From positions 1,116,001-1,180,000 of the forward strand of contig OZ374561.1 of the NCBI GenBank assembly GCA_977862235.1: a DNA stretch of 64,000 nucleotides, given 5' to 3'. This document shows positions 6,736 through 64,000 of this stretch, in pieces. Numbering within the stretch: the first letter of the stretch is position 1; each line of letters starts with the position of its first letter. The stretch comes from Dudresnaya verticillata (taxonomy: Eukaryota). The notes beneath the pieces were generated by a model that was given only the letters and a program-made list of their open reading frames with translations, searched no databases and was not told the origin of the DNA. A program made the translations under genes and the position numbers.

Positions 6736-8464
6736 TTAGATGTAGACTACATCTAGTCATTCACGGACGTTCTAAGCTCACTTTTTAACCAATGTTCGCG
6801 CTCGCGTCTCTAAAGACCCTTTACCCTTAAAGTTACGTTTACGCTCGTGGCACCCATGTGGTGTTTTTCAATTATAGCGTGGTCTTTGCCAGTATTGAAC
6901 TTGAAATATACGTAAAAGTGCTATTGTTTCCGCTTCATGTATGTCACATCAATCATATGCCCTGTTCTGGACTCCGGAAGAGAGCAAGGATAAGGTTTAC
7001 TACTTGCGCGTTGATCCAGTTTCTTCCTGTTTGTGATTTGACGCAGCTTTATGTTTAGTTTTAAGCCGTTAAAAGCATCATTCGCTGCTCACGTTTGTCT
7101 AAATGATGCTGCAAATATAGGCACCCATCAACGTTCGGTGCACGGCAAGAAAACGCACACTCAGACTGGCGCACCGCTCGTAACTGGTAATGCCTTGTCC
7201 TCCGCCTCCACTCGTCATTCCATTACATCTATCTGCGATTTCCCTGTCGCTACAGTAGCCCCGAGAAAACGAGCTCTATTCCGAACCTACATCTGGATTT
7301 TCAGCGATCTGAGACAGAGAGATGGGGAACTTTATAAGATAGTAACTAGGCACCCTACAAGGCACCTTCTTGTCTACGATCATGAAGGCAGATATGATGC
7401 CGGCTCACGGCGAGGGCTTGGTAGCGGAGGAGGAGGGTGACCAGAGCACAGCAGACCCCACCCCGAGCGACCAAGCTACCGTATTCACTACGATTGCTAT
7501 TATCCACTGTATGCTTTACTCACTTTACCACATTCTTCGCTACCTACTAGCGCTCTACATAGTACCGCCGGTAGGGTCCATTAATGACATTATTCTTTAT
7601 GAGAGATTTTATTAGTGCCATCTGTCCAGGGGTAATGGCCCATGACCCACGGAGTCGCATCGCAGCTTGGATATCCTTGTCTAACAGCATGAAAGAAGTC
7701 AGATCCTTCACTATACTAGTGGTAGTTCTAGTAGCAATCGGATCACTGTGTTTGCTGGATAACGCGAACGTGACGCGAAAAGAATGACTTCGGCTGATGA
7801 AGGAGGGTCTGGTGAGGACAGGGTTGCTTTGTTAATGTTTACCAAGAAGAATACATGTCAGCAAGCTATACCGAGAGGTTGGAAGCATTCTGAAGATCTA
7901 TTGGTGATGTTCTTCATTGGCTGTTTAGAGTGGTCCTACGCAGGCTATATTGATATGTGCCGGGATGCTGTATTGAATTCAATACAATCACTGACAGTGG
8001 AACACAACTTTTGAGGTACTTGACTGCATAATGTCAACAATCCACTCTTCCAGTCAGAAGTGCTGGCGGCGTTAATATTGACACATATCATTGGGGTAAA
8101 GGTTATGAAACGTAATTGAGCTACAGTGCGATGATTCAATTTTAATGTGTTGTTTATGGTGGTTCTACGCGGGCGACAAGGGCCCAGTAGTAGGCACACC
8201 AGCCCAGAGGGCCAAGGTAGCGTTACTTAGTATCGTTACAAAGCAAACTGCTGGGGGTGTTACTGGGTCGGAGAGTGGGAGGAGGGGGGCGACAGGTATA
8301 AACACCTTCTCCTCTCGGATTTATTGCCACTGTGTTGTATCTCAATGTAACTTGTCAGTGCTAAGACCTCTGCCCTCTTCTCTCCTTGAGTGGAAGACGA
8401 GCAGAGCTTTATATAACCGGAGTTGCCTACCATGTGTAGACTACTCTCCAGCTTCGCACGTGAA

Positions 8465-16283: not shown

Positions 16284-16434
16284 AGACCCCTCCTAGCTTA
16301 GAAGAGAACTTTCTACTTCCCAACGATCGGTGCATCACATTTGCGGCGTGCCTGCTTTCGGCCTATTGGGAGATTCAGTCCGACCACATTCCGGAATTTT
16401 TCAGCTGACGATCCTTGGACTGTAGACCAAGCAG

Positions 16435-27496: not shown

Positions 27497-28269
27497 AGAC
27501 TATGGGTTGACTCACTGCTCCTACTGAGCGAGCAGGAGTAGCCCCTAACCGTAAACCGTAATCACAACCCTGCAGTAGTCATGAACAGTATAGCTCAGAA
27601 CAGTTAGCCGTGGGTACAGGTTTCAACTCGTTACGTCTACAACGGAACATGTTCTGGAGTTTGAAATCAGAACAGTTATTCGAAATTACAAACTACAGTT
27701 CCAGTAAAGGTAACGGCAACATATTACTTGGAACCGCTCTACACAGGGACCAGGGAGACGGGAAAGCCGTCGCGCAGAGATCGCGAATGGCGCGGATCGT
27801 GGTCGAGATAGAGGCAATATAAGCAGTGGGTGGGTTGGCCTTTGACAATTTGAGCAGGGCTGGTGAGTGCGAGCGGAGGGTCGCGGGTGGGGGTGGGCTT
27901 TGCGATGGGATAGGGAAGGGGCAAAGGTGCCAACGGATGGCAAGGAGCCGATAGTGGTAGTCAGGGAGGACTAGCGCTGAGGGAAGGGAGTTTGGGTGTG
28001 ACACAGGTGCAGGGTGGCAACCCGCAAGCGCAGCTTTCCACTCCTTACAATTGTCAGCAAAAGCTTTGGCGTGGGAGAGCGAGTGTTGCAAGACGCGTTG
28101 AAGAGAAGGGGATGGGGCTTTGGGGAGGGCCTGGAGTGTCTTCTGGGCCTGCCAGGATGCACGGTAACCGTCCTTGTCAGGCGACGTAGGGAGGCGACGC
28201 GTTTGTTCTGCAGTGTCCGCTGCCGCAATGTCAGGCTTCCATGTGGAAGAGGGTGCGGAGTGCGTATAA

Positions 28270-32323: not shown

Positions 32324-32932
32324 TCATGCGAAGAAGTCCTCCATCCGCCTGAGAGCGTCGCCGCGTTGTGAGAAGGCGTTGGCAGCAGCCTGAGCTGCAG
32401 CAGCCGCTGCTACTTGAGGGGCAGCATGCGGAGCTGCGTCAGTCGCTTCAGCAGCAGCAGCCTGAGATGTAGGAGTCGGGGGAGTTCCGGGAGCGGGTGC
32501 TGGTTGATGGGCAGGAGCAACTGCTTGGCGCCCAAGGATGCTGGACGGAAGCACTTTGCCAAGAGCATCTATCTCGGAAACGAGGCCAGTCGCGATGAGG
32601 GTAACAGCGAAAACAAACGACTCCGTCCTGTCAAAATCAAATAACGTTAAGACAAGCACTATGATTATGAGCGACCATACCGCAACGCTGACAATGGTAA
32701 ACACCATCGTTATGCATGCAGAGTAGAGCCAGGCTGACTTGCCGGCTTCCTTGGCCATACACTCTTCTGCTGCTTGTATAGGAGGGAGATTGCTCTTCTG
32801 TAAGATTTTTGAGTAGCTGCGCTTGAGAATCAGAGGGACGAAAACGCGGTTCATCTTGAGGAGTGCCACCATGATAAGATTGGCGGCGGATATGATGGTA
32901 TCGTGGGTTTCCGGAGCGGAGCTGGAGTCCAT
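32324..32932 (-). CDS. Hypothetical multi-pass membrane protein, paralog A
   Basis: Likely start MDSSSAPETHDTIISAANL; hydrophobic segments; clearly paralogous to the gene at 34310-35004 (ISAANL, NRV, EAGKSAWLY, LIATG.VSE.D, terminal EDFF). Confidence 0.8.
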   Translation of the reverse strand: MDSSSAPETHDTIISAANLIMVALLKMNRVFVPLILKRSYSKILQKSNLPPIQAAEECMAKEAGKSAWLYSACITMVFTIVSVAVWSLIIIVLVLTLFDFDRTESFVFAVTLIATGLVSEIDALGKVLPSSILGRQAVAPAHQPAPAPGTPPTPTSQAAAAEATDAAPHAAPQVAAAAAAQAAANAFSQRGDALRRMEDFFA

Positions 32933-34309
32933 GATGATTGCGAACACAATGACCAAGGCATCGAGCGTGCGACAATGTCGCGCATAGGCGTGATACTTAT
33001 AGGCACCGAGATTGCTTTTGTGCCAGGCGCCTGTCGTGCCGAAGCACGGGCAGGCTTCGCTACTAATTGCATGAGTTGTTGAGATCCGGTTGCAGTTGTA
33101 TTCAGATTCCACACTGCAGGACGGCGGTGTGCCGGTCTGCCTGCTTCTGCCGGCGCCATTTTCATCATGCTTCTCGGCGATCAACGGGTTTCGAGACAAT
33201 AATAATGCTGCGGAATCTTCTGCCTTTGGAAATCACAGCATGACGTGGAGATGCTATCGATACGTGCACTGCGTCTCCCGCGCTGCAGTCTCGCGGGTGC
33301 ACCTGTCGACAGCACTTCTACCCCTATCTCACGATATCTATCGTACCTTAGGCCACCACATCGAACCTCCGCACATGGGCGCGAAAACACATTGCGCAAG
33401 TGGACGCCGCTCCTCCATTCCCCGGAGATACGTTACACCATAACGTGTTACTCTCGAAACCATATCTGGTAACGTCCGACTGCAGATACCCCGTCCACTC
33501 CCCGTACCTACACCACTCGCCACCGCCACGCATATCGCCCCCGACAGAAAAAGCCCCGCGCAGCACAGAATGTAACCCCACGACGCGCCGCGCCCGTTCA
33601 CTCCGCCCAAACGACATGTCCCGCCGTGCTGCCACCGTCCCACGTCCTCGAGATATAACACTACTCCTGGTACCCGCACCACGGAACCACGAATGCAACT
33701 ACGCGTCCGCCCCGTCCCACCCCCTAACACTTCCAATCATGCCTCTGGTGTAACCGTCTCCCCCACTCCGTCCCACTTCCTCCCAAACGGCCCTATGCCC
33801 GCCCTCCGCCCAGCTTCTCACCCATCCCTCATGCTTGCTGGAGCTGTGTTGTCAAGCGCATCACGCCTCCATCTAACCTTGGCTTTGCCGCTGAAAGGCT
33901 TTTTCTTTCGAAGGGTTTTCGCAGTTGCTGGGATCGTCACCTGCCTGGCAACATGAGCTCTGCGAATTGCGCTCTGGAGGAGCTCAACGTACCAATTGTG
34001 ACATGGACCGCACTGCATCTACCGTTCGCAGCAGACATGGGCCGATGGGCTCATGGAGATCCCGTATGTTGAGGCTTGCCGCTGTCGATCAGTGCTATTT
34101 GACTTTCCCCTTCAATGCGATTTGAAACAAGGCATGTATACTATCGACTTGCCGCAGAGACCATCCCACAGAATTCCCAGTTTCCACCCAAGCACTGTGA
34201 TTGCCAACGCCAGAAACTATCGCTGGACATTTGGTACATGAGCCTTGTCGGTGACATTAGTTGCGTATTGACAGCGAACCAGGGGTTGTGTCCGGGTGGA
34301 GAACCTGAA

Positions 34310-35004
34310 TCAATTGAAAAAGTCCTCCAGAATCTGGACGGCATTGTGGCGCTGGGAGGAAGCAGAAGGACTAGCAGTACCATGTGCAGTCAAAAGTGGA
34401 GTACTTGGAGAAGGTTCAGCTTCTGATGTGAGTGGCTCATGGTCGGGGTGTGACTCGGTATCCCCAACAGGCACTGCAAATGTGGTAGCGAAGAGCTGCG
34501 GGCCTTGCGGAGCCCCGGCTTCCTGAACAGACGCGGAGGTTTGGGCGGAAGCGGAAGGTCTTTGGGCAGCGGGGGTATGGGTGGAGAGCACGCGAGAAAG
34601 AAGGTCAACCTCGGAGACGATACCCGTGGCGATGAGAGAGGCAGAGAATGTGAAGGCCTCGTACTTCTCGAACGGGAAGGCGTTGAGGACGAGGGAAATG
34701 ATAATGGTGGACCAGAAGGCAATAGTGAAGACGGTGAAGAACATGGCCATGAAGGAGGTGTAGAGCCAGGCGCTCTTGCCGGCCTCCCTGATAACGGCGT
34801 GCGTGGCGCGGACGGCGGCGTCGTCATCGGTGGAGTGAGTGCGAGTTTGTTCCTCGGCCATCTTTCGGTTAATGGCACGAGCGTAGATACAGCGCAGGAC
34901 GAGCGGGACCATTACGCGGTTCACCTTAAGCAGGGAGACCATGAGGAGGTTGGCGGCGGAGATGACGGCATCGCGGCTTGAGAGGGGACTTCCTTGGCGG
35001 ACAT
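34310..35004 (-). CDS. Hypothetical multi-pass membrane protein, paralog B (apparent 1-nt deletion near start)
   Basis: ORF 34310-34942 extends upstream in frame as RDAVISAANLL. Adding one base to the G-run at 34984-34987 joins ATG 35004 (MSAKEVPLSSRDAVISAANL), matching paralog A. Confidence 0.75.
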
Positions 35005-35677
35005 GGTTAAGTGGCGCAGAGTGGAGGGAGACGTGCAGGTGTACGAGGGTGAGGCAACGGGCCGGCGGCTGCTCGAATACGGTGAGTCATACCCATAGCA
35101 CGGAGTGTCAGTTTGGACCCTCCAGGTCGGTTGGTCAGGTGAGAGGGGCTGTGAAGGCTGAGACTGGAACTTGAAGTGGATGCAAAACAAGTAGACAGCT
35201 ATGAAGCGCGGCCACGGTTCTTGTCCAATAAACACGTGGTGCTGTATGTCGGTGTCGGTGGACACATCAACGTTTGGCGCGTCGGTCTTGTTGCAGAAGG
35301 ATCTGGCAGCGTAGTTGCACGTCTCGGCCACCCCGGGTTGACCCACGAGGGCGTGGAGAACAGTTTGACGGCGGCGCTATCTTCTACCGGCAGCGTGGCA
35401 CCGTCCGTGGCTGCGCGGGGCGCAGGGCGCCTCACCAAACAAACAGCGCATCCTTCGAGTCCACGACATTGGGCTTGGGCCAAAAATCGGCCAAAATGAC
35501 CCATTTCCAGCCTATGATCCCGATCCCGGTCTCTGTGATCCCGATCACCCGCCCTGAGCCACAATCCCTCGACCTTGGCCACGAAACGTCTCCAACAGCA
35601 AAAACTTCCTGCAGTCTTTCACCTTTCCTCCACCCCCCTCCCGCCCCCTTCGTCCCCCCCCCGCCCCAGTCCCCACT

Positions 35678-45989: not shown

Positions 45990-46212
45990 CACCGCCTTCG
46001 GCGGGGGCGGCGCTGCGCGCCGCTAGACCGCTCCTTCGGCGCGGGACGGCACTGAGTGCTGGTATGATAGTCCCCGCGCCGAAGGCACACGCGGGGTGTA
46101 ACGGCGGTCGCGCGCGCACAAAAGTAAAGGACCCAATTAAGAAATCAGGCGCACAGCAAAGGTGTCGGCTGTAAGGAGCACCATCCCGCCAATCAATAGT
46201 GAGCTTTGCTGC

Positions 46213-46268
<56 letters not shown>

Positions 46269-46930
46269 CTTTCATTGGCGCTGCGGCCGTATATTTTGGA
46301 TATAATTTCGGATGCGTAGAAACTATTGTGGCGCCAAGTGGATTTGTTGGCGCATCGATATAGCATTTTGTTTATTTTTCGAGACTTGGCCGGGCTAAAA
46401 CTACCCTTTGGGCGGTCATACCCCTACAAATTCTTACTATAAGGTAAACAAGGGCAACGACGCGGCGCTGCGCGCCGCTATGCGCCGTGCAGCCGCGCCG
46501 AAGGCGCGACCGAGTTTTGTAACCTCTGTGGCAGGATGGGATACTGTGGGATACCGGGATAGGTTGGGGTCGCTTGATAACGACAGGTGTCTTACAATTT
46601 CTTTGTGATGATATTTGTTTCCAAGCCGTGAGACCGGTGCGGTTTTAATCACATAAATTAAGAATGGAGGCGCACGGCGGGACTGTAAGATCGGGTCACT
46701 GTAGCGCGGCGGCGCGTCTGTCAACTTACTGTCAGAAAATCGGAGCGCACCAATGGGCACGCGTTGCGGCAAAATGCAGCCAATCGGGTGGCGCGGCTTG
46801 GCGGTCAGCCAATGGGGTTGCAGCTTTGCTGCTGCTGCTGCTGCTGCTGCTGCTGATGCTGCTGCTGCTGCTGCTGATGCTGCTGCTGCTGCTGCTGATG
46901 CTGCTGCTGCTGATGCTGCTGATGCTGCTG

Positions 46931-46963
<33 letters not shown>

Positions 46964-47596
46964 AATTTTTCTATTGGGCGGAAAAGGGTGAACTGGTAAT
47001 ATTTTTAGGCGTGCGTAGAATATAGGTTTGCAGGCAAGGGATGGTAATGGCGGGCGGATGTCTATTTTTACAAATGTTTTACGTGTACGAAGCCCTTGAA
47101 GGGCCTCATACACTGACTAATCATTACTATGGGGAGAACAAGGGCAACGACGTGGCGCTGCGCGCCGCTATGCGCCGTGCAGCCGCGCCGAAGGCGCGAC
47201 CGAGTTTTGTAACCTCTGTGGCAGGATGGGATACTGTGGGATACCGGGGTAGGTTGGGGTCGCTTGATAACGACAGGTGTCTTACAATTTCTTTGTGATG
47301 ATATTTGTTTCCAAGCCGTGAGACCGGTGCGGTTTTAATCACATAAATTAAGAATGGAGGCGCACGGCGGGACTGTAAGATCGGGTCACTGTAGCGCGGC
47401 GGCGCGTCTGTCAACTTACTGTCAGAAAATCGGAGCGCACCAATGGGCACGCGTTGCGGCAAAATGCAGCCAATCGGGTGGCGCGGCTTGGCGGTCAGCC
47501 AATGGGGTTGCAGCTTTGCTGCTGCTGCTGCTGCTGCTGCTGATGCTGCTGCTGCTGCTGCTGATGCTGCTGCTGCTGATGCTGCTGATGCTGCTG

Positions 47597-47629
<33 letters not shown>

Positions 47630-47802
47630 AATTTTTCTATTGGGCGGAAAAGGGTGAACTGGTAATATTTTTAGGCGTGCGTAGAATATAGGTTTGCAGG
47701 CAAGGGATGGTAATGGCGGGCGGATGTTTATTTTTACAAATGTTTTACGTGTACGAAGCCCTCGAGGGGCCTCGTGCACTGACTAATCATTACTATGGGG
47801 AG
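45990..47802. repeat. Tandem array of ~0.67-0.69 kb units, each with a (GCT/GAT)n microsatellite
   Basis: Units 46447-47136 (690 bp) and 47137-47802 (666 bp) differ mainly by 8 triplets; a shorter diverged unit lies at ~45990-46446 with (GCT)n at ~46207-46267. Confidence 0.9.
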
Positions 47803-48408
47803 AACAAAACTGCACAGTGGCAAAATTACAAAGCGCCATAATAGCGGTTGACCTCAGCATTTTTAATGAATTTTCAATCTACAAACGTGTTAGTCTTTAT
47901 TGTAGTCTTTTACTTAGTCTATAGACTAAGTGCTAGTTTTAGTAAGTTCCATCGGGCTTTCTCTAACTACTAGAATTCTATAAAGGAGGTCTGCTCTCGA
48001 CTCTCGTAGAGAAAGGGAGGCAGGCCGCAAAAGTCTGAAGCAAAAACTTCTGAGTCGGCGCGTCCAAGCAGAGTGTGAAAAGAACCGCGTGCTTTCATCA
48101 ACGACCCAAAAAACCCAGCAGTAAGTTTATTCATTACAGTGCTATCTGAGCCGCGACAAATTGGTAGCATCGCCTACTCGATCGCTAAGGTTTTTTGCGC
48201 GGTGAGCGCCAGTCCGCCCAGCATTGAGCCAAATATAGCTGAGAAGCCTTTGAAAACAGCAGCACCAAATACGTCAAATACCGAGAAAACAATTGAAAAA
48301 GCAGAAAGTGAAAAACCAGGAAAAGAGAAGCTAACAAACGTGGAAAATAAGGACAAATTTTAGGCAAAATTACCGAGTGCTTTAACGGGACCGACATTCA
48401 ATATTACC

Positions 48409-49030
48409 TGTAGTAGAATGGCCCTTGGCCAGGTAGTCGGCGATAAAACGGCGCGACAGCTGTCCTGGGGACACACACTCACGGTGGGCGGTAGCTCAAA
48501 GGAAAAGGGAAAAGGGGGTGGTAGAGACTTGTAGTGGGTGTAATACCCAGAAACAAAGAAAAGGGAAGGCGGACCCTACAGCGTAGAGCAATCGTCGTAC
48601 ACGATAGGGCTTGTAGACGCCCAAGGCAAGGGAAACACGGTGGCACCGTAGGAAGACCAGAAATGGGTACAGCCCAAATTACACACCGCTGCCGGTTTAG
48701 TGCGGGGCCCCTGCTACTCAGGGGCCCAATAAATACGGCGGGAAGCCGGAAATGCTACCCACTCTAAGTTAGAGTTATAATACTGACAGTTCCCTAATAC
48801 TGTACACTAAATGGTGGATTACAATCCAATGATAGGAATGAGTGGTAGTACCACTACGAGGTACAGGCGCGCTGCTGTCTGGCGCGCCATGCCAAAAATA
48901 TGGGTGACCAGGATTAATCAACCAATGATAATCAGCCATCTCAACCATCGTGCCCTCGGGCGCCTCACGCCTTACAGGCGTCGTCTGTACACGTGTGTGC
49001 TTACAGCGCTCGGGCGCTCATTATTCCACA
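48409..49030 (-). repeat. 3' LTR (622 bp)
   Basis: Matches 61092-61714; preceded on the minus strand by the PPT AAGAAGGGGGCCG. Confidence 0.96.
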
Positions 49031-49795
49031 CGGCCCCCTTCTTAAAACTGAGCGACCCCGCTCAGTACAGCAATGCTGTTTCCAACGGTTCCGACCGTTG
49101 AGATCTGAAATCTCGTCGAAAAGATTGGCCCAGCCAAGCGTGGGGTTTCTGGCTTTCTAGAAGCATCCGCGAACGGTCGTCGGCGCCTGCGCCAGATCAG
49201 CCCGGCAACAGCCGTCGTCGGTGGCTCGCCTTTGGCGCCACGACTGGTATCGACAACGCGACACGCCAGACGGGGCGTCTTATTTCAACCTCGGCGCAGA
49301 GCCGACTGTGCCCCTTTCGCGCTCTCGGTCATCCGCCGACTCGACTCGCAACCTCAACACTCCTGCGAGTCTGCCCTCCTCCTTCATCACTCTTCCGCCC
49401 TTCTTCACCCTAGCCTCTTCGCGACGACTCGCGTCGTGTTTGGGCGCGTCTTTCTGCCGTGCTGCGCAGCGCGCGGGAGCGTTTCTCCTTTGTCTCGTGG
49501 CAAAAACGTTTGCGTCGACGACTGGCGTCGTGTCGCCCATAAGCATCGCTCGAGCGATTCAGGTCGCGCTCGCCTTTCTTAGGATCGGCTTTGGAGCCGA
49601 CGTAGTTCTAGGAAGGTCTCTGCGCCTTAGAAGTATTTTCAGGTCGCGCTCGCCACCTTAGGGTTCGGCTCTGGAGCCGACGCGTATACCGAAGACAAGG
49701 CCTCCGTGCCTTAGAAGAATATCTGGGGGACTACCCCACTCGCGGTCCAAGAACCGTGACACGTCTCGCAGCGTTGTTGCGCGCTCATCTCTGTG

Positions 49796-52072
49796 ATGAA
49801 TAACTCCGGCCTTGCGTATGGGGAGGTTGGATCTAGCGCGAGCGTCCTCGGCCACGAAGTGGACTCGGCGGGCGTGCCAATGGCCATCAAGCACAGTCGC
49901 GACTGGTTGGTCCGTACTGATCTGGCACACATCAAAGCCCGTGCTGGGGCTGGTCGGGAAGATATCCAACGACGCGGTGGACGCGTGGCGCAAAGCCGGA
50001 TGTGGAACAGCGTGAGCCGTGCGCGGGTTGAGATGTTGACCGGCACCAACCGTTTCGTTCCCGGCCTTCAGGGAGAGGCATCATGCTATCTGTGGGATCT
50101 CGCATATGTGCGATTCAGGCATGAGCTGTTCTTCACGAACAGCGTGGCGGGGAATCTGAACTACCACTTGGAGATGTTGCGTGAGATCCACTCGCGTGGA
50201 GGGTGAGACCTGCGTATGGCCAACCACGCTCGTCCGCTGATTCGGAAGGGCCGGGATAATTACCCGTATACGTTAGCCCGCATCGTTCGCTGGGATGAGT
50301 CCACGAATCTCAAGTACGCCCTTGACAATCCCCAAACGGCCAAGCCGTTAGCTTATTCGCGTTTCGAGCGACGTCAGCGCCACAAGACGGGGTGTCTCAT
50401 CCCGTGTCATTGTCAAGAAGTGGTCGCCATCAAACCAGAATATTATAGGGCGAAGTACCCTCAGATCCCTGACGACCATGCGTCGTACGAAGTGTCATAC
50501 TCGATGCCCGTGGGAACACCCACTATTGTGGCTTACTTCGGGTTGAATATGATGGCGCGAGCCATGGACGAGAGTGTCCTTTGGAGTCTTTTTCGACACG
50601 AGTGGATCGTCTTAGTCGCTCAGACTCTCGTCTATGAGGCCCGCCATGGGGTGCTGTATTTCATCAACCAGCCCCTTCGAGCTGCCATCAAGGAGATGGG
50701 TATCGACAACCTGTCGGCGGATGCCGATGACGCAGAGGACTTGAAGGCCCTTTTGGTCTTTATAGACCGCATTCGGTGGAGCCGAATCTCCAAACGGAAT
50801 CGTCATCTCCCGGAGAACACCGGTCATCTCACTCCTGCATATGACCGAGGAGATTGGGTGGACTTTGACCCAGAAGATTGGCATCCGGTGTTGCCGGACT
50901 TCTTGATTCAGCCTGAGCCGACAGAGGAGAGATCCCTGGTCTTGGATGAGGGAACCCGCATCACCGGTGTGACTCACGGGTGGGTGAGCGCCAGTTGGCA
51001 GGACCCCGGTCCGGAGACTCCAGGGGACGTCCCGTCATTCGACGACACTGTCGATGGTCAGTCTCAAGGTCCGTACGCGACGGCGTCAACTGGCCACGGT
51101 AAGGCCAATCAGGTCTTGCGTGACGTCTTCAAAAAACGGGGTTTGGCTATCCACCTCGCGGTGCATTGGGAACTACGGAATCTCACCGTTAATAGCCTCG
51201 CCGACTGGGTCGAGGAGGTAATGGTGGACTATGAGTCCAACTGGATGAGGACTCCGGGTCCTGTGGAGCGTTTGGAGAAACTTCGTACCCATTTGTCAAG
51301 GCTCCCACCCTTGAAGGGATACCCCGATGATGTTGACATCAAACCGCGTTTGGGCGTTGGCCATTCTGCTACGCCGCGAGTGAAGAGGGAATCGGCCAAG
51401 GTCGAGGGTTTCGATCCGCGCGCAATGACAGGTGGTGACACCTCGGTGGTTCCTCGTGAAGAGTCAGCTGTGGCACCTTCGGCCAGTCATGGAGCGGCCA
51501 TTTCCCACTCGGGACCCAAGCCGATCAATACAGCGGGCGCCTCATCATCGACGATGGCGCCGGCTGCTCCTACGACGCACTTGTCTGGCTTCGTCGCTAC
51601 AGGCGAGTTTCTCAACACGATCTCTCCCCGAGATGATTCTCGGGGCCAGCCCGATGCTAGTCGTTCTAAGGGCGACTCCCTGGTGGTTAAACCAAGTGGC
51701 ACCGGCCAAGAGAGCGAGAAGCCTGCGGATGTCGAGACTGGGCCTTCGCCCATTGTTGGCGAGTCCAACGTAACCCCTCAAGACGACGTCGTCGTGAAGA
51801 CTGAGCTCGCCGTGAAGGAAGAAGACGAAGTAGCCCCTCTCGTACAGGGTAGCCAGACCGATGGCGTTGATGCCATGGAAGTGGACCAGCCAACGGCCAG
51901 TCGCCGTGCGTTAAACAAGTTAGAGGGGAGTCGGCGTGGTCGTGGTCTGCGTCGCGGAGGGGAAAGTCGTCACGTCGTGCGCGAGGTGCGACGTGTCGTC
52001 GTATCTCACTCGGCACCCAAGCCGAATCCTCCGTTGGGTGAGGATGAGGTTATTGACCTGTTGTCGGATTAG
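49796..52072 (+). CDS. Antisense extra ORF of the Gypsy element, unknown function (two segments, ~136 aa and 618 aa, in one frame, split by a TGA at 50204)
   Basis: Long, protein-like ORF located between the end of pol and the 3' LTR, on the strand opposite gag-pol. Confidence 0.75.
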
Positions 52073-53350
52073 CAGAAGTTGTCCTTCTTCGAGTAATGGC
52101 TCGTGAGCCACGTAATTCGCCACACTTGGGCAAGAGCGGCTTATCCGCTGAAGTAAAGTGACTTGTTGTTGTTTATGTCACTTCTGTACGCCGATTTCCG
52201 TAAGTAGAGCCAACCACTGAGGAGGCCCTCATTAACACGCCTCTGCGACTAGGCTCCGAAGGAGCCCCCGTCGACGTTCGTCGAGTGACTTCCTTTAACT
52301 CAAGGCCGTCGCGCCTTTTCTTGTCTAGGTCCTTCACTCGGAGAGGGAGTCGCGCGCACATGCGCGGCAGACTCCTCAAGGGAGTTGGTGGCGAGAGCCG
52401 GGGGGTGCCGGGGTAGTGCCCCGTGGATTGTGGTGCCAAACGATTGTGATTCGTTAGTCAATCCGCCTCCCTTGGCGCTTCACCAAATCAGAGTTAATGC
52501 CAGCGATGATAAAGGCGACTCTACAGTAGACAAAAACATACTGTAGAGCTACGCTCTTGTTGGCGCCAACCGATGTAGGGGCTCTTCAGCCATAGCTGAT
52601 TTGCAGGTCAATTCGCCTGAATTGGCGTCTAGAGCAACACCCCGTCCTTTCCCTCGAAGAGGGTCGTTAACATCCTCTAGTCGTCGTCGACGAGGGGGCT
52701 TGTGCCACATCTGCGGCCGGCAGGTCACCGTTATGGTGAAGCGACTCTCCCATGGTAGTGAGCCTCACCCGCGACGGCCTCTTAATGGCGACAAAGTTAT
52801 CGAAACTCTGCTAGGGCAGATGAGTGTAGTTTCGTGGATTCTCGTCACTATTATTGCCGTGGTGGAGGTGTCCAACATGAGGGCAGATCTCCACTCCTGG
52901 GTTCCAATCCATAAGTGGCTGGAGCCTATCTCCATAACTTAATTACCATATTAGCATAGGGCTTCCTTCCTACCGGTGGTAGTATTTGTTTCTATACATG
53001 TGAGCGTTCGCTCAAGTCTTATTATTACAGGGTTCTACCCCTGTCCAGATATCCCTTGATCTCATCTATCCCAGGTCTTGAACCTTCTGTACATCTATCC
53101 ACATCTATCCATGTCATCTATCCATATCTTGAACCTTCATTCATCTATCCATATCTTCTAACCAGACCAAGGTAACAACTTTTCCTTCACCAGCATACGT
53201 GTTCCACGTTTCATATAATGACAGCTTCCACAAGCAACCCAACCCTTGCTGCAGGAGATTGACTCCTCCTTTTCCATGCTAAGCCGACAGTCTCTTTCTG
53301 TAGAGCTATAGGGCTGTGTTTTCCCGAGACTCCACGTCTTCGTCTATCGA

Positions 53351-56300
53351 CTAAGCCACTCCGTCGGCAGTTACTCCTGGAAGGGGTATCTTCCTGGAAC
53401 GGTGATACCGTTTGACCAAATTGTCAGGGAGGTGATCCCTTGGCTCCCAGGTGTCTTGCGACGCCGGGCATTGGAACCACCTGATACGGTACTTATGGGT
53501 ATCGGCGTCATAGTCGACGATCTTTTCATACACGAACTCACGTGGGGGTGCTTTCTTATAGCGTGAAAACGTACGGCGAGGCGCCGTCACATCATCCTCA
53601 ATCGCCGGCATTGCCGTCGGAGCGGCAGGCGGATTTGACTCCTGTAAGAGTTGTGGGGTGTTACCGCCTTGAGACAGGGAAACAGATACCTCTGTAGGGG
53701 GCATGTTAGGAGAAACCGGGCCCACGGCGCTATCGATATTGTCAGTGTTTCCAATTAATGGATAGGGGACAGTCGTTGCATTTGCGGGTCCCACGGCCTC
53801 TCTTGAGCGTTCCTCATCTTGCGCTCTTCGCGCCTCTTCAGTGGAAGATTCATCGGTGGGCTCTGGCCCAGAAGGTGGTTGCATATGGTTTCCAGCTTCT
53901 GGTGCTTCACCAACTATCGTGGAGTCCTGTCCTAGAGCCCCGAGTTCTTCGTCTGGCGAGGGCGCCAATGTCACACGGTCCAACGAGATTGACTGTCGCT
54001 CCCCCTTGACTTCAAGCACGACGGTGTGCGTTCCTCTCTCGAGGACCTTATAAGGCCCCAGAGCCTTTGGGAAAGTTTTCCTTCTCGCGATACGCCTCTA
54101 GCGTCTTTCATCTTAGTGTCTCTTTCGAGAAAGACCCATTGTCCAGGGCGTATCTTCTGATTGCTCAGACGCATGCGGTTGTTGAAGTTAGTTTCGTAGC
54201 GACGTTGCGCTAATTTTAGCCGAGGCAACGCTGTATCCATCAGCTTCTCAAGTCTAGCGGTCAGCCGCTTCTTGACATTAGTTGCAGATACGTCAGCCAC
54301 GTCGACCGTTTCAGCTTTCTCCATGAGGATGGAAGTAGGTGGGTTGGATAGAACCAAATCAACGGGCGCGAATCCCGTAGCACGATGAACGGTCGTATTA
54401 TACGCATACGTCAGCGCCGACGTGAACTCGTCCCAATCTTTTTGATCATCTGCGATGAAGTGTCTCAACCCTGCTAGAAGGGTGCGGTTGAACCTTTCGG
54501 TCTGACCATTGGTCTGCGGATGATATGTAGAAGTGAACATATTCCGAATACGGAGGATGCCACAGACGGCAATAAAGAACTTGGAAGCAAACTGCGATCC
54601 ATTGTCGGACAAGACGTAACGGGGTGGCCCGTAGATATACACCCAGTCTTCGCAGAATGCTCTCGCTACTGTATAAGCCGTTACCGTCTTCAACGGGACT
54701 ACCCGTGTAAGTTTCGAGAAACGATCGGTGATGACGAGAAGATACTCGTTCCCCTTGCTTGATCGCGGCAGCGGGCCCAAGATGTCAATTCCTAGGAATT
54801 CGAGCGGCATAGTAGCCGGAAATAACTTCATGTGCGAAGTATGTTTTCTCAACTGGACTCGTTCCCTCGCGCACTTGACACAGTTACGCACTGTCGAGTA
54901 AACGGCAAGGGCCATGTCTGGCCAATACACTTGTCTTCTCAAGTTATGGTACATCCGTGTGCCACCAGGATGGCCAGCCATATCCGGGTAGTGTGCAAGA
55001 TGTAGGACTCTCTCCTGAAGAACTCTAGGTATGACTACCTGTAAAGATCGGTCAATGTAAGACCTTCGGACTAGGAGTCCGCGTTCGTCTTCCAGGTAAC
55101 ATCCCGGTTTTCCCGCTTCGATGGCTAATCGGATACCCTTACAGAATTCGTCTGTTCGTTGGGCGCGAAGAAGTTCCTCTATTGTAAGGAGTGAAAGACT
55201 CTTCTCGTCCATTTCCTTCTCAGCCACGTTGGCTATCAATTGCTCGTCCTCGAGACCCAACTCGAACGAATTGTCTTCGGGTTCCATCTCCCATTCTTCC
55301 AAAGGTCGCGACCTGGTGTTGGCTCGCGATGTTTCCTTCGCCGAAGGGTCAGGGGGATCTTCCCCATCGCTATCAGCGATTATGAAGCAGGGGATCTCGA
55401 GATCCGGTTCCCACTTAGTAAACCCATAGGTGGGTAAACGTGAGACAGCGTCAGCAATCTGATTTTTCTTTCCCTTACGGTATTGAACCGTGAAGTCATA
55501 CTCTAAGAGACGCAAGCGCCATCGCGCTAGACGTCCGGACGCGTCCGTCATGCTCATCATCCATTTGAGAGCCTGATGGTCGGTGTAGAGGTCGAAATGA
55601 GACCTTTCCAAATATGGTCTGAGCATTTGTGTAGCCCAGACTACAGCGAGGCATTCCTTTTCGCCGACGGAGTAATTCCGTTCTGCTGGTGTTAGGCCCC
55701 GACTCCAAAATCCAATAGAGTGTCGAGTCCCGTCGGGTTCCATTTACATTAGGGCGCACCCTATTTGGTAGTCACACGCGTCGGTATCGACCGGGAGGGG
55801 TCTGTCTTCCTTAGGAAGTCGGAGTATTGGCGGCGCGATGAGGGCTTTCTTCAGTAAAGCGAAAGCTTCGCGTTGCCGTTCATCGAATGGAGGTAATTCG
55901 AAACCAACGTCCTTTTGTAGGAGCCTATTAAGCGGAGACGCTACACGTGCAAAGTTCGGTACAAAACGTCCATAGACGTTGCATTGCCCGATGAACGACC
56001 GTAGTTGCGTTTGCGTCGTAGGTTCCTTGAAGCCTTCGATGGCTTGTGTATTCTTGGTAGCTACCTCCAGGAGACCAGGTCGGATCACGTGCCCGAGGTA
56101 GTCCACGCTTTTTGTGAAGAAATTACACTTCTTCAACTTGAGCGACACACCCGCTTCCTTCAACACAGAGAGGATCTCTTGAACGTGACCTAAGTGTTCG
56201 GTGACACTCTTAGAGAAGACTATGATGTCGTCCAAGTAGACGAGACAAGACTTCCATCGGAATCCCGATAATAAAATGTCAACTGTTCGTTGAAACGTTG

Positions 56301-57950
56301 CTGGTGCGTTGCACAGGCCGAATGGCATTCGGCAGAACTGAAAGCAACCTGCATGACAGGTAAAAGCGGTTTTTGGCTTATCCTCCGCCGCGACTGGTAT
56401 CTGCCAGTACCCTGAATTGCAATCAAGGGTTGTAAAATATTGGGCGTCGCCCAACGAGTCTAAGCACTCGTCCATTCGCGGGAGAGGGTAAGAATCCTTG
56501 ATGGTTATCGCGTTAAGCTTTCTGTAATCAACACAGAAACGGAGGGATCCGTCTGGCTTCTTCACCAGTACCACTGGACTTGCGAACTCAGAGCGCGCTG
56601 GCTCTATGACCCCTTCCTTCAACATCTTGTCGACTTCATATTGCTCCGCTTGTCGCGCCTTCGGTCCAGACCGATATGGTTGTGCAAATACGGGTTTTGC
56701 CCCGTCAGTGAGATCGATTCGATGCTCCGTGACCTTTATGGTCCCGAGCTTCCGGTTCCACCTATCTGCGAAGGGTCGCAACATCTTGCGCACGAGACGT
56801 CTTTCAGACGTAGAGAGTTGTTCCAGGGCTAAGTCATCGACTGTTAGCTTCTCAGCGGCGGTTGTAACGCCCGGTTTGGAATTGATCACGCCAAGAGCAG
56901 CAGCCAGCCCTGCCCCCCTACATCGAAGGATGTCTCCGTTTGAGGATTCGTGTCCTTTTGTTGTGAGACTGTATCCTCGGAGACGTCGTCGATGGAAACC
57001 GAATATACAGACGTGGCCGTGGGAGCTGGAACTGCGCGACCAATCACTTGGTGTTTGTTCAACCGCTGTGTGCGGGAAGAAAAGTTGGCAACCTTGACCC
57101 GGAAGAGAACATTCTCTTGGAGGTTGACGATGCCATTCGTGATGATCACTTGTTGACGGTCGTATAGACGTTGGAACGAATGTAGGAAGTGCGTTCCTTT
57201 GGCCGTGCACGTGACGGCGACCCAGGTTTCTGAACCGGGTAGTAAGTTAGTGGTTTGGGCAACTCTTACGAGTCGCGAGTTAGGTAGGGGAGGGACCTCC
57301 ATGGGCTCGCCAGAGTTCGTGTCTCTCGGGATACTGCACCGACGTCGTAGAATCGGGTGTACCGAGCCGTCCCGTAGCGCGATGGTTTGTTTGCGTACGC
57401 GCAAGGCTTCGACATGGGTATCGATAAAGGTACAGCCTAAGATCATATCAACGGCTAATGCCTTGACTACGACGAACGGTTGGCGTACCGTGTAGGAGCC
57501 AATTCTGACGGCCAGGGAGATCATTCCCATAGTTGTTAAGCGGTGACTTGACGCGGATGTCAAATTCACGATCGATCGGGTCGAAGATATCTTCTTCCGT
57601 TCTTCCAAAGAGAGCACGTCGGCTCGGATGAGGTTTGGGCCCGCCCCAGTGTCCAAGACTGAGAGCACTTGAGTAAGTTTCTCAACAGAAGTCCCCACGG
57701 ACGCGACAACTTTATAGTTGTATCTCGAAAGAGAGCAAACTGGGTCCTTAACATACTCATGATACTTATACCCGGGAGGTAGGCCCACAGGGCGTTCTAA
57801 AATCTTCTTTGGAAGAGAAGGCGGGGTTTCCCGCGACACAGATCGGTTGGTAGAGGAGAAGCTTAAGAAGTCACATTCCTCTGAACGATCGGGGGGTTCC
57901 GATACGACTGGGGTTGCCCAGTGAACCGAAACCGGTTCCCCCCTAGCTAG
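53351..57950 (-). CDS. pol: Gypsy Pol (PR-RT-RNase H-IN-chromodomain), disrupted by 1-nt shifts at ~56915 and ~54070 and a TAA at 55744
   Basis: PR VLDTGAGPNLI; RT LRFCVDYRKLN, MPFGLCNAPATFQ, YLDD; RH DTDAC, RNYSVGEKECLA, TDHQAL; IN H-HPG...CVKC, DILGP, SDNG, PQTNGQTERFN; chromodomain YEKIVDY...YRIRW...DTWEP. Confidence 0.95.
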
Positions 57951-60658
57951 TTTTTCGCCCTGCTAGCAGGCGACCGCGGAAGCGGTGGAGGCGGCGGAAG
58001 GGTTCGCGACCCTTGTCTTGGCGAGCGTGGCGCCGCCGGTGGGTGTCTGGGAGTGTCAACCGGGTGATTAAGTCCCGTTTGAAATTGGACATGTCCGTTC
58101 CTGCCTGGGGTTGACCCCAAATTTTGAAGCGTGCCTGGCGGCGGCCCACCGGCCCGACCTGACGATGCGTAGTCGCGGTGGTTGCCACGGATATCTCCGT
58201 TTGCGAACTCGGGTAGGCGCCCTATGGTGGCTAACCATGTCTTCTGCTCGCGCGACAAGTGATAAAACTGTCGGCGTTTTAGCGCCTCAAATGACGGTTC
58301 ATCCGTGCGAGCCAGATATGGGCAATTCGGTTTCTTGTGGCCCACGCCATAGCACTCGAAACAAATGTCATAGGGTGCATCTTCGACTTTTACCCACCCA
58401 GGACGCTGAGTCCTTGTTGGTTGTGCCCATCCAGGCAATCGGTGGTTGTAGTTCTGTAGAACCGCTTCCACTTCACCATAGTATGGTTGGTTACTGGGTG
58501 CCCCAGACCACGAGTCTGATTGGGTTACCGTGGATGGAGGCGCTTCGTTGTCGATGGCAGCCACCACGGCGTCCTCGCTATCCGCGTCAGAGCTACTGTT
58601 CTTTGATGAATCGGAATCCGAGGACATCTGCTTCTTATTCTGGAGAATGAGAAGAGCTCGTCCAGACTTGTGCATCTTCACCCTGGAGAGGGTTTTCCGG
58701 GGTAGCGTTGAGCTCACCTTCTTGGAGCGTCCCCCACCCACAAGGGCTCGGTGGGAATCTCCCTGAGCCGTTGCGAGCTCAACGTAGTCTGCCAGTCGCG
58801 CCGTGCGAGGGTCCAGTGATGTCGTACTCAAAAGCGGTTTGACCGCAGGTTGTAACCCTCGTATAAAACGTGTGATCAGGTCTTGCTCTGAATAAACACC
58901 TGCGACCTTTCGCGCTTTGTTCTGCAAACGTCTTGAAAACGTAACCTCCTCCTCATCAGACTCCAGAATCATCGTGTCCATCTCAGAAGAAATCTTCTCG
59001 ATGTAGACGTCCTTTGCGTAAGTACGCAGGAGGTAATTAATGGCTTCCGGCCACTCATTGAAACCCCCATTGTCGTCGCCTGCGGCATCGAAATTGGCTT
59101 CGAACATGTCCTTAGCGTCTTTTTCCAAGAACTCTGGGATAACCAGAATGGCAGCGCCTTCACTGACTTGGGCTTGATCCAACTGTCGTTTCAACGTGGC
59201 CAGAAAGCCAATTATGGAAACGGGGTCACTCCCATCAAAGCGGCGACTCCTCATTACGGATTTAACCCGTTTAATCTTCTTGAAAGTGGCTTCCGTTACT
59301 TCCGGTCCTCGATATGAATCGACATTCAACAACCGATAGCGTCGGTATGAAAGAACCTGTACCAAGGCAGGGTTTCGTGGAGTCAACTACTTGAGTCCCG
59401 TCCGACGTGGGCCTCTCCAAGAGCTCCATGACGGTCGGGAAAGACCTCGCGAGGTGGGTTCATCTTCATCCGAGTGGTTCGGAGCGGGGTAGGAATTGCT
59501 TCGGCGTTGATCTTCAGCCTTGCGGCTGGAGTACCGGTCTTGACGTGAATCAATCCGGCTGCGGCACACGTTGGAACCGTGCGTCGCCCGGCAATCACAC
59601 CGAGGGTGTTCCGTCCTCTCACGACCAAAGTCGTCCTTTCCAGACTCCCCTCCCGAGTCACGTCGCGGAGACGTTTTGCGACGGTCCCTGGTGCCTCGAG
59701 GCACAGGGGAGCGTCGTCGTTCGACTTCAGGGATTAAGTCCCTTTCACGATTAGTTCGCCTCATCTTTGCTTCTAGCAACGCGACCTTCCGTCTCTCTCC
59801 ATCGAGATCTTTGCGTAAGAGCTCGATGGCTCGATCTTGTTCGACACACCTTGTGTCGTCCACGTTACGTTGAACGTCTTGTATAGCCATTACGGCTTCT
59901 GTCCTTGTTAGGTCGGTAACCTTGTTGAGTGCGTGTAGTTCCTCGTGGACGGTATCCAATTGGTCCCCGAGGGAATCCACTTGCGCCTGCAGGGTTTCGA
60001 CCCTCTCTTCGTCTAAACCTCTGAGAGGACCTGGTCGACCTCGAGATTCAATCTCTTGCTGACACCTCGCCAGGAGGCGATCATCACGGCGCGCGGATGC
60101 CTCGTCAATGTACCTCTTGACCTTTAGAAAGGTATCATCAGCTTGGCTTTCCAACAGTGCCACGACGCTCGTCGTCAAGGATCTCTCGATGCCTAATTCG
60201 ACCATTCGTCCAATCTCACGCTCCGTGAAGCAGCGGATTTCAGACGAATAATACTTCGTTCGAATTGGCAACCCTTCGTCCGGAGTTGCCGGAGTTTCTT
60301 CTTCCTGGGCTCGTCCGCCCATAGCTTGAACACTGGCTAACGCCGGGGGCGACGGCATCATTCTACGGCCTGGACCTTCGTTCTCCCCGATGTCAGCGGG
60401 GGCTTCTCCAACGGTTCGGACCGTATTTTCTCCGTCAGGGACCTGATCCCTACCAGGGCCAGGTGGTTCTTCTTCAGCTGGGACGCCGGTCGTTTGGGGT
60501 GGCGGTCCCAGCTCCTCCGTTGCCGGATTGTTTGCAAGAGCGGTTACGCCCGCACGGGTGCGGGCGCCTACCGTTCTTACAGAGGCAAGACTGCCTGTAC
60601 GACTCGCGCCTCGGCTAGATAAGCCGGGGCGCGTTGTATCGCCATTAGATGTAGGCAT
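57947..60658 (-). CDS. gag: Gypsy Gag with long N-terminal extension (~903 codons; in-frame TAG at 59387-59389)
   Basis: The 423-aa and 479-aa ORFs share a frame; CCHC knuckle CFECYGVGHKKPNC; the paralog at 61845 has GAG (Glu) at the TAG position. Confidence 0.9.
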
Positions 60659-61072
60659 CTTGACTTCAACAGGACCTGTATCGTCGGTCTGATGACGTTC
60701 TTCTCGGTTCAGCCGATGTGGTAGCGGGGAATTCTTCCCAGGCTCCTCGACGGTAGGAACCGTATTATACTCGTGTTTTCTCAGGATGCACAGAAAACCT
60801 GTTGAGGTAGTCTCACTCCGGGCGTCACTCCCCCGTGAGAGGGTACTTCTAAAAACGGATAAAACCGTAAAACGAACTTGTGCTTGCTCACAGATTTGAC
60901 GCTACTCTGGAGCTTAACGTGAAGCGTAGAAACCGTCGACAGTAAGACGACTAGGGTTTTGCCCTTCGAGAGGTTGGAACCTTGAAAATCAACGGACACT
61001 CCGTCCTGTCTTGACTTCTCGATTCGGCCTGTCGATGACAAGGTGGAAAAAGGGTCCGACCCTGAGAACTTG

Positions 61073-61090
61073 TTCTAGGTCGGGAGACCA
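61073..61090 (-). promoter_or_regulatory. Primer-binding site TGGTCTCCCGACCTAGAA (tRNA-Tyr-like)
   Basis: Starts TGG one base after the CA of the 5' LTR. Confidence 0.85.
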
Positions 61091-61091
61091 C

Positions 61092-61714
61092 TGTAGTAGA
61101 ATGGCCCTTGGCCAGGTAGTCGGCGATAAAACGGCGCGACAGCTGTCCTGGGGACACACACTCACGGTGGGCGGTAGCTCAAAGGAAAAGGGAAAAAGGG
61201 GGTGGTAGAGACTTGTAGTGGGTGTAATACCCAGAAACAAAGAAAAGGGAAGGCGAACCCTACAGCGTAGAGCAATCGTCGTACACGATAGGGCTTGTAG
61301 ACGCCCAAGGCAAGGGAAACACGGTGGCACCGTAGGAAGACCAGAAATGGGTACAGCCCAAAGTACACACCGCTGCCGGTTTAGTGCGGGGCCCCTGCTA
61401 CTCAGGGGCCCAATAAATACGGCGGGAAGCCGGAAATGCTACCCACTCTAAGTTAGAGTTATAATACTGACAGTTCCCTAATACTGTACACTAAATGGTG
61501 GATTACAATCCAATGATAGGAATGAGTGGTAGTACCACTACGAGGTACAGGCGCGCTGCTGTCTGGCGCGCCATGCCAAAAATATGGGTGACCAGGATTA
61601 ATCAACCAATGATAATCAGCCATCTCAACCATCGTGCCCTCGGGCGCCTCACGCCTTACAGGCGTCGTCTGTACACGTGTGTGCTTACAGCGCTCGGGCG
61701 CTCATTATTCCACA
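61092..61714 (-). repeat. 5' LTR (623 bp)
   Basis: Matches 48409-49030. Confidence 0.96.
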
Positions 61715-61807
61715 TTACCCCCAAGCCTAATTACAGGAACAAAATGTGTTTCCAGTGCGGTCACACTAAATTTGCCAACCAATCCTGGGAAGACCCATAA
61801 CACATCC

Positions 61808-63907
61808 AAAGAACCTGAATGAAAGCCGGGTTCTGCGGAGCAAGCTCCTTAACGTCCGAGCGTCTAGGTCCTCGCCAAGAGGGGCACGATGCACTCCTCG
61901 GTGGGGTACTATCCTTTTCGGAGAACTGCGGCTGACGCCGTTGCGCCGAACGACGCGGTTCATCCCCGTTTCGACGGGATTCAGTCCCTTGGCCCGTACG
62001 GCAGGTTCTGCACCCTGAATGCGCAGCTCGCGGGTTGTCAGCATCCTAATGGTCGTGTACCGATTCCACATCGGAGTCTCGCCTAGGCGAATGCCGTCGC
62101 CTGTTTCGAGTCCCTTTTGGCACCGGACTCCGGCGTCGCTCCACTTCAGGAGATACGTTCTTCGCCAGAAGGCATAACTGTGGTGCAAAACGTCTAAGAC
62201 GATAGACCGCCGAGCAGTTCGGGGCTCGGTGGGTAGCTGCGCCCTTGGCGGTGAGTGGTCCCGCCGTGGGCGACTTGTTGGTAGAGCAAAGGAACACACC
62301 TTGGGCGGACTGTAGACGCCCGAGGCGGAAGGTGTGAAGGAAGGGAAAAGGAAACAGAAAGGGAACACGTCAAGGACGATGGTAGACGTGGAAGCACGGG
62401 AGGTAGACGCTTAGCCGTAGGCAGCGGTAGGGTACGCGCGTGCGGAACGGGGAAGTCTGGACCAAGGCCGGCTTGCCCGGGCGTTTACTGTTACGTCTGG
62501 GACGGCTTACCTAAGTATAGTACGGCGATGCGGCGGCGGCAGTGCGTGTGCGTAGCGCGGGAACTCGGGACGCGTGTCGTCCCGAGGTGCGTCTGACAGA
62601 TCACCCACCGCATGCAGCCGCACGCCTGACAGATTGCTGTACAACCCCCTGTGTGGGTGCTTACACGCACACGTGGACGCGTGTGCCTTACAGCCGTGCG
62701 CGCGCGCATACTGCAGAGCGTGCGCCTTGGATCTAATCTGATACTTGTCCGATCCCATCCGGATCGGTCCAGCAATGCGAATACCCGCAGCCTTACAGGC
62801 GCGTATCTTACAGCTTAGGCGATCCGGATAGCCAATCTGGATACCGGATCCGGATCCCATCTGGATCCGTATTACAGTGCCCCGGGGCGCCACGTCGGCC
62901 CATCACCGTACAGTGCCCGCGTGGCGCGCGGCGTGCAGTGTGCGCGCGCGCCCCAGTGAGCCGTCGATGACCACCGCGTTTTCGCGATACTCCCGCGTGA
63001 TCGCGCAGCTACCCTCCCGAGCCCGAACTCTCGGGGGTGCTCTACAGCCGCGTACTGCCATTTCACCACACCATGAGAGGTCCACTACTCGAGTGAGGGA
63101 CTCAAAATCTCCGTGGATCGTTTCCACCCGCTCCACGAGCGATTCTATCCTCGCATCGAGTGATTCCATTTCATCTGCCACTCTCTGTCCTGTATCGGAG
63201 TGGCGGATGCGGCTGGTCATTTCCTCTTGACACAAGGTCAGTATCCGCTCATCCCGGCGTCCGGCTGACTCATCAATGTAGCGTTTTACACGCGTGAGCG
63301 TTTCATCAGCCAGTGCTGCGGCAAGCGGCCTGATCTGGGTCGCTACAAGGTGACTAACACCATCAGCGACCATTAGGTGGATCTCCGATTCCGTAAAGCA
63401 CCGGACATCCTCCGAATTGGTATTCGTTCGAGTTGGCTGCCCATACCCAGGCGCCGAGTCGACCTCTGTCGGTGTCGCGTAATCGGTCGATCGTCCACTG
63501 GTGAGTCGCCCTGATTCCGGCATCACTTCTGGACCCTGGTCCTCATTCCCGTCCACTTGTGTGGATGGCTGCGGTTCTGACCGGGTCATTTTTCCTTCTA
63601 GCGTGGCCGATTCCCTTCCAGGGTTCGGCATTACACCGGGCGTAGTCCCGAGAACAAGGTCGGGCCTAGAACTTCCAACCAATAGTGGTCATTCGCGGCT
63701 TAACCTCGGTTCGGGACCGTCTTCATCGGGGGCGTCGCCGTCGATATGGCGTCGCCCCAATCGTTCGTCCGAAGGGCTGCGCCTTTGCGCGGCAGTCCCT
63801 GAACGGGTGGTAACGCCCGAAATACGGACGGAGGAAAGACTTCCGGCACGACTGCCACCACGGCCGATAAGGCTCGGCCTGGTTGTATCGCCATTCGATG
63901 TCGGCAT
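61808..63907 (-). pseudogene. gag: Decayed gag 5' region of a third Gypsy element related to 48409-61714; interrupted by a solo LTR and 3'-truncated
   Basis: MPTSNGDTTRP start, VRCFTESEI, VKRYIDES, PEVERRRSPVP and SWRGPRRSDVKELAPQNPAFIQVL all match the Gag of the complete element; in-frame stops at 63689 and 62046. Confidence 0.88.
62179..63070. mobile_element. Solo LTR (892 bp)
   Basis: Termini TGTGGTG...CACCACA form a 7-bp inverted repeat at the points where gag homology breaks; purine tract and TTACAG motifs as in the other LTRs. Confidence 0.7.
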
Positions 63908-64000
63908 CCTTCCGATGGTGTGGGACTAATAACCCGTCCCAAAATAGGTAATAATTCCGGAAGGACCGGTGGGTCGATGGGACTTTTTCCCGATGCGCCA

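Follow-up and report, generated by a model that had tools for sequence, protein, structure and literature searches.

What is a protein-coding frame of some 758 codons doing on the opposite strand of a retrotransposon? In the 64,000-nucleotide stretch of Dudresnaya verticillata DNA analyzed here (the window), such a frame lies within a minus-strand Ty3/Gypsy copy with a chromodomain, and it raises the questions of whether it is a gene of the element, how long the element has carried it and what its product may do. Antisense ORFs of LTR retrotransposons are an old puzzle, seen mainly in flowering plants and one fungal family, and the window adds one more, seemingly independent example, in which the gene is carried lineage-wide by a Gypsy group with a chromodomain. 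An earlier note, made from the sequence alone, had described a young chromodomain Gypsy element with ~4.3 kb between the pol stop and the 3' LTR, and in that space an opposite-strand frame of ~758 codons with a single TGA. Each of these descriptions holds: the translation of 49796-52072 agrees, pol ends at 53351 and the LTR at 49030, the LTRs are near-identical and flanked by the target-site duplication TTACC, and the Pfam Chromo match lies above its cut-off (Table 1).

Table 1. Features of the Gypsy element and of its antisense ORF, in window positions
Feature	Positions	Strand	Remarks
Target-site duplication, left	48404..48408	n/a	TTACC, 5 bp
3' LTR	48409..49030	-	622 bp; TG..CA ends
Polypurine tract	49031..49043	-	AAGAAGGGGGCCG
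Leader, 3' LTR to antisense ATG	49044..49795	+	contains duplicated unit of ~80 bp, 49558-49720
Antisense accessory ORF	49796..52072	+	758 codons; TGA at 50204-50206
Conserved domain, predicted mostly helical	49877..50890	+	residues ~28-365; spans the TGA
Middle segment	51071..51370	+	residues ~426-525; matched in 4/142 relatives, all short fragments
Low-complexity, likely disordered tail	51353..52069	+	ends in EVIDLLSD
Non-coding spacer between convergent ORF and pol	52073..53350		27-bp tandem repeat at 53054-53157
pol	53351..57962	-	protease, RT, RNase H, integrase, chromodomain
gag region	57947..60901	-	in-frame stop 59387-59389
Primer-binding site	61078..61090	-	TGGTCTCCCGACC; presumably tRNA-Tyr-like
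5' LTR	61092..61714	-	623 bp; TG..CA ends
Target-site duplication, right	61715..61719	n/a	TTACC

The carrier has the attributes of a Ty3/Gypsy element (LTRs with TG..CA ends, target-site duplication, primer-binding site and polypurine tract, and the order gag-PR-RT-RH-IN). Pfam matches cover gag and protease, both weakly, and RT, RNase H, integrase and chromodomain above cut-off, with Chromo at the integrase C-terminus scoring 31.1 bits against a cut-off of 25.1, and the pol is of a type that we take to be typical of red seaweeds. Chromodomain Gypsy lineages are also known outside the chromovirus clade (accessible part of PMC12477816). The two LTRs are 2 substitutions and 1 indel apart, and comparison with intact relatives reveals four breaks in gag-pol in total (those in pol being frameshifts at ~56920-57020 and ~54000-54080 and a stop at 55744-55746); gag in intact relatives is a single frame of 600-800 aa, and the gag/pol overlap is present in an intact relative as well. 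Judged from its sequence, the window copy is recent but defective, the breaks being mutations or assembly errors; it is dead, and its value is as a pointer to the family only.

The antisense frame is not a product of chance, because its longest stop-free stretch (621 codons) exceeds all of 1000 dinucleotide shuffles of the region (mean 180, maximum 442). It starts 0.77 kb from the 3' LTR, and its translation contains CLIPCHC and LWSLFRHEW...GVLYF and has EVIDLLSD at the C-terminus. The TGA at 50204 is most likely damage, one of five lesions in the window copy, since it cuts a domain that is conserved in relatives; these are continuous, so that programmed readthrough is unnecessary as an explanation. 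An intron removing the TGA was considered and rejected, each of the 4 in-frame candidates deleting residues that align with relatives. The stretch between two anchors measures 94 residues in the window copy and 73 at the median, a difference of ~20.

Relatives of the protein are numerous. A HMMER scan of 1.84 billion representative proteins (50%-identity level) recovered 142 at E<=0.001 (57 at <=1e-10 and 2 at <=1e-30), 24-45% identical, and an alignment of 109 rows (108 of the 142 plus window residues 1-430, with X at the stop) defines one shared domain of ~340 residues (~28-365). Conserved motifs lie on both sides of the stop: DW-x-x-R and D-x4-R-x3-E N-terminal to it, and ER-x-x-R, Y-x3-P-x6-E, P-x4-Y, W-x5-EW, W328 and GD C-terminal to it. 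Of the 102 relatives having the C-terminal half, 64 combine both halves in a single protein, many of the remaining one-half relatives being short and fragment-like, and many relatives are 430-870 aa long with low-complexity tails. Weak pattern scans of viral contigs (with two subfamily alignments) and of prokaryote genomes (with one alignment) returned no relative.

The protein is predicted to comprise one compact, mostly helical domain of ~340 residues and a disordered tail, much as the earlier note had pictured a globular N-terminal part followed by a disordered end. AlphaFold2 gave pLDDT 82 and pTM 0.84 for the window domain and pLDDT 89 and pTM 0.86 for an uninterrupted homologue from locus L018, both models consisting largely of helices plus a short strand region at the C-terminal end, and the tail is low-complexity, with 77% disorder-promoting residues versus 61% in the domain. 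Whereas the genomic arrangement is known, the protein family is recognized by no library that we searched, in agreement with the same note's report of no recognizable domain. Pfam gave no match at E<=1 for either half of the ORF and no significant family for 67 relatives (one weak match below cut-off), NCBIfam matched 0 of 109 proteins and PHROGs 1 of 109 (E 0.008), the best E values against PDB sequences were 1.2 and 2.6, and a word-based protein search, too insensitive for the antisense-ORF family, returned 0 hits with a single protein and 3 with the alignment. At the level of structure, Foldseek found nothing at E<=0.001 in the PDB (both models) or BFVD, and VIA-align against 48,161 chains reached Z 2.2 (rmsd 4.2, 98 aligned) and 3.2 (rmsd 6.0, 69 aligned) at best, low values that are no proof of a new fold, the typical Z of unmatched models being 7-8. 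Two leads were discarded: viral RdRP fragments in the ESM Atlas (0.84-0.86, ~100/256 features) lay in the noise range and had no fold support; and a kinase-like lead there (0.81), likewise in the noise range and without fold support, disagreed with the RdRP lead. The domain shows no likeness to integrase (hhalign probability 4%).

The pattern of conservation bears on what kind of protein this might be. Conservation is strongest at charged or aromatic positions (R195 97%, W328 96%, E232 93%, D101 91%), and the charged residues D101, R106, E110, E191, R195, E208 and E232 are kept in 81-97% of weighted rows. Such residues would suit an enzyme, for example a nucleic-acid or chromatin modifier with an unrecognized active site, and accessory enzyme genes occur on red-algal DNA transposons (accessible part of 10.1101/2025.02.11.637652); with zero invariant residues in the 109 rows, however, and no conserved His/Cys metal set, we consider an enzyme quite improbable. 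The CLIPCHC motif, which the earlier note had offered as a hint, does not extend to the family: C200 is kept in 9/92 rows, C204 in 4/95, H205 in 32/95 and C206 in 32/96. The resemblance of EVIDLLSD to a SUMO-interacting motif does not appear, by a general pattern, to be a family trait, a SIM-like motif with acidic flank occurring in 5 of 53 tails versus 2.7 in shuffles (126 of 1000 shuffles reach 5); a narrower pattern, chosen post hoc after viewing the data, occurs in 4/53 versus 0.14. Basic clusters are found in 11 of 53 tails versus 4.1 in shuffles, with no match in the window tail. The mean charge of the domain is -0.009 per residue, so it is not net basic and plain DNA binding is not favored.

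We then ask where the gene resides. A pol alignment led to 81 loci (the best 80 of 564 confirmed metagenome loci and one distant viral-collection locus), most of them GC-rich and from few record sets, probably representing few hosts; several of the records are labeled marine metagenome. A profile made from protein hits alone, without the loci, found the domain in 37 of the 81. After one round of retraining with 34 locus ORFs, for which it is circular, the profile gave 44 matches (the window's included), 43 of them antisense and 910-4014 nt downstream of integrase, and the best E with reversed proteins as control was 5.8. The main integrase is followed by the domain in 41 of 80 loci overall, and in 30 of the 38 whose 3' flank reaches 3 kb or more, counts that, the loci being pol-selected, speak to elements, with the domain as a host gene outside their reach; the other eight loci of the 38 comprise two with frameshifted copies, one with the tail only and five with nothing. 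Among ten two-LTR elements, the distance from the 3' LTR to the start of the domain match is 0.5-1.0 kb in seven and ~2 kb in two (partial matches), and in one the match overlaps the repeat. Carriers of the domain occur in every main branch of the locus integrase tree (106 rows, 25 of which are pol proteins picked by hand), and, circumstantially, family and pol clusters have source contigs of exactly equal length (P0143/P0010, n=4; P0136/P0011, P0270/P0005 and P0276/P0037, n=1 each). The spacer, leader and LTR of the window element had no DNA match among the 81 metagenome and viral-collection loci. At L018:1968-7202 (+), pol has an extended low-complexity linker and ends in a chromodomain-like segment missed by single-query tblastn, and for this reason we make no claim of chromodomain absence for other loci.

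Selection on the gene was estimated by the Nei-Gojobori method from 36 elements with both genes, in which 90 of 630 pairs were comparable (at least 50% identity and at least 100 codons), all of them pairs of relatives, with the window copy in none. The median dN/dS of the domain is 0.33 (range 0.11-0.82; below 1 in 90/90 pairs, and 0.13-0.54 over eleven disjoint pairs), that of integrase is 0.17, and the domain exceeds integrase in 78 of the 90. Of the six frames, pN/pS is lowest in the coding one (0.40 versus 0.59-1.43). These comparisons indicate that the antisense gene is under purifying selection and is evolving faster than the enzymes of the element. Domain and integrase distances are correlated (Mantel rho 0.64, p<=0.0005), their trees have 15 of 33 splits in common (none of 1000 shuffles exceeds 3) and do not conflict at any well-supported split, from which it follows that the lineage has long carried the gene and passed it on vertically. 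The term 'cargo', used in the earlier note, is too weak, because the gene is inherited with pol across the lineage. The same note had proposed to judge the ORF by sister elements and by identity to a recently captured host gene; the sister elements support it (domain in 30/38 loci with enough flank, median dN/dS 0.33), and a partial comparison with host genes gave no such identity. Conserved, constrained and fixed in position in related elements, the antisense ORF is, we are almost certain, a real accessory gene of the element, as had been suggested.

The same evidence weighs on the idea that the ORF is an ordinary host gene captured recently, or a neutral passenger. Cellular homologues are conceivable, host genomes having been outside the scope of the search, and one locus has a domain match without integrase on the expected side (L042:4394-5278, in the region L042:4346-5479, +, the sole such case). 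That match adjoins an LTR-like repeat, however, which fits a nested insertion, as it probably is, and 0 of the 18 family clusters looked up carried a name or an NCBI source. The gene is moreover antisense, fixed in position, selected and congruent with pol, in elements whose integrases are ~45-55% identical to the window's. A 'recent' capture is largely refuted, and we regard this whole explanation as very improbable.

Could the gene or its RNA instead restrain its own element, through copy-number control or through dsRNA that leads to small-RNA silencing, and so spare the host lineage? Genes that converge can interfere with each other's transcription or produce dsRNA (PMC7264820), and the accessible part of PMC11963269 cites regulatory antisense retroviral proteins. 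RNA alone is no explanation, however, because selection acts on the protein frame, and a purely negative gene would easily be lost by selfish copies, yet the domain is kept in 32 of 38 loci; we consider self-restraint improbable. A role in replication, with the protein binding Gag, integrase or element RNA and serving packaging, import of the pre-integration complex or target choice in the manner of retroviral Vpr/Rev-type accessories, would accord with the congruence of the domain and integrase trees and with the conserved Arg-rich helix (R192 87%, R195 97% of weighted rows), and has been proposed for plant antisense ORFs (PMC7264820). Linkage alone yields such congruence, however, the domain evolves ~2x as fast as integrase and the gene is absent or broken in some elements, so that a replication cofactor is rather unlikely.

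Our tentative preference is for a protein that resides in the nucleus and acts in trans as a host-facing or element-binding regulator, which we hold to be quite possible while stopping short of calling it probable. Its message would be a separate antisense mRNA starting near or in the 3' LTR, such a transcript being required because the genomic RNA cannot be the template; TATAA on both strands at 48775-48781 and CCAAT boxes (consensus words) make this LTR a candidate antisense promoter. Protein made from integrated copies could then act in trans, in the nucleus, on the host or on the element, and may help these elements to remain active. A globular domain with a disordered tail, the basic clusters of the tails and faster-than-enzyme evolution are consistent with a nuclear host-facing regulator; the Cys/His motif, being unconserved, the SIM-like motif, not being enriched by a general pattern, and the domain, not being net basic, argue against it, as does the lack of any link of the domain to a known chromatin family in the libraries searched. 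In Arabidopsis, accessory proteins of transposable elements exceed the core enzymes both in dN/dS and in predicted host contacts (accessible part of PMC13547354), and in maize, Grande gene23 has an antisense promoter of its own and its product is nuclear (PMC7264820).

By position the window ORF belongs to the class of antisense 3' additional ORFs (aORF-3R), and the conservation expected of that class is seen in 30/38 loci at dN/dS 0.33. The Retand/Tat antisense ORFs (Grande gene23, RIRE2, Retand) occupy the same antisense site between pol and the 3' LTR, and they too lie in a region of 3-6.5 kb and are lineage-wide, conserved, of unknown function and accompanied by tandem repeats (accessible parts of PMC11963269 and PMC7264820). 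Retand is a non-chromodomain lineage of flowering plants, however, whereas the window carrier has a chromodomain integrase, and the TRP28 domain (PF04195) of Retand ORFs matched 0 of 68 proteins (the window's and 67 relatives). Boty brtn, from a Gypsy element of Botrytis/Sclerotinia, is likewise a non-plant antisense gene between pol and the 3' LTR (accessible parts of PMC7264820 and PMC8365987); this comparison is by description only, and 0 of 18 family clusters bore a fungal or other name. Env-like ORF3 (errantiviruses, Athila, SIRE) is also an extra ORF between pol and the 3' LTR, but it is sense-strand with membrane segments, whereas the window ORF is antisense and its product has no membrane segment by hydropathy (19-residue maximum 1.22; the ten highest of 59 long relatives, 1.48-2.15).

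Seaweeds have mobile-element accessory genes of another kind. Plavaka PAG1-3, thought to be chromatin modulators, include in PAG1 a protein that likewise has no known domain, a parallel drawn by description only; they sit on EnSpm/Mutator elements, however, and PAG2/3 have methylase, SET, ParB or oxygenase domains that were not detected in the antisense ORF (accessible part of 10.1101/2025.02.11.637652). The same part of that source reports that transposable elements of C. merolae are silenced by H3K27me3, and it curates one Gypsy family without mention of 'antisense'. The ORF family is described in no title or abstract opening of the literature searched, a search that did not extend to Repbase; Repbase holds 1181 Chondrus families (accessible part of PMC4455052), and an entry there may already annotate the antisense ORF.

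The VANC proteins of VANDAL DNA transposons offer an analogy of proposed mode, that of a TE-encoded, trans-acting protein that counters silencing, and the short repeats of the window element would be its putative targets (the ~80-bp unit and the 27-bp tandem repeat of Table 1 are possible binding sites by their sequence). VANC itself belongs to a dicot-specific DNA transposon and is MAIN-related (accessible part of PMC13547354), and the window ORF has no Pfam link to it. That the seaweed Gypsy lineage encodes an independent VANC-like anti-silencing protein, of undescribed fold, expressed from a 3'-LTR antisense promoter and directed at a Polycomb-type target, is a specific and rather doubtful proposal; should the protein counter silencing, retrotransposons would have their own equivalent of VANC, one that could contribute to an explanation of LTR-driven genome growth in seaweeds. 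Under any of these readings the family offers a confidently predicted domain, measured selection and many naturally intact homologues, and it provides a well-defined protein for localization, pull-down and structure work.

Other repeats surround the element in the window. Beside its 5' LTR, 63074-63910 (-) encodes the N-terminal gag of a second related Gypsy (35% identity, E 1e-31), and 385-1425 (-) is a Gag-like remnant of a third (25% identity, E 1e-25), the pol side of which lies beyond the window edge. A Copia-type element, with integrase before RVT_2, extends over three frames at 16426-22294 (+). The left neighbor of the Gypsy element is an array of tandem ~690-bp units with GCT/GAT microsatellites (46207-47807), and a 5.8-kb duplication links 2630-8443 and 21675-27502 (99.5% identity), with a third copy of 2.2 kb at 13689-15841 (97%). 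Two tandem, similar-looking hydrophobic ORFs at 32324-33232 (-) and 34310-35086 (-) have no Pfam match, and 9690-11333 (+) encodes a cysteine-rich, probably secreted protein with ephrin-receptor-like repeats.
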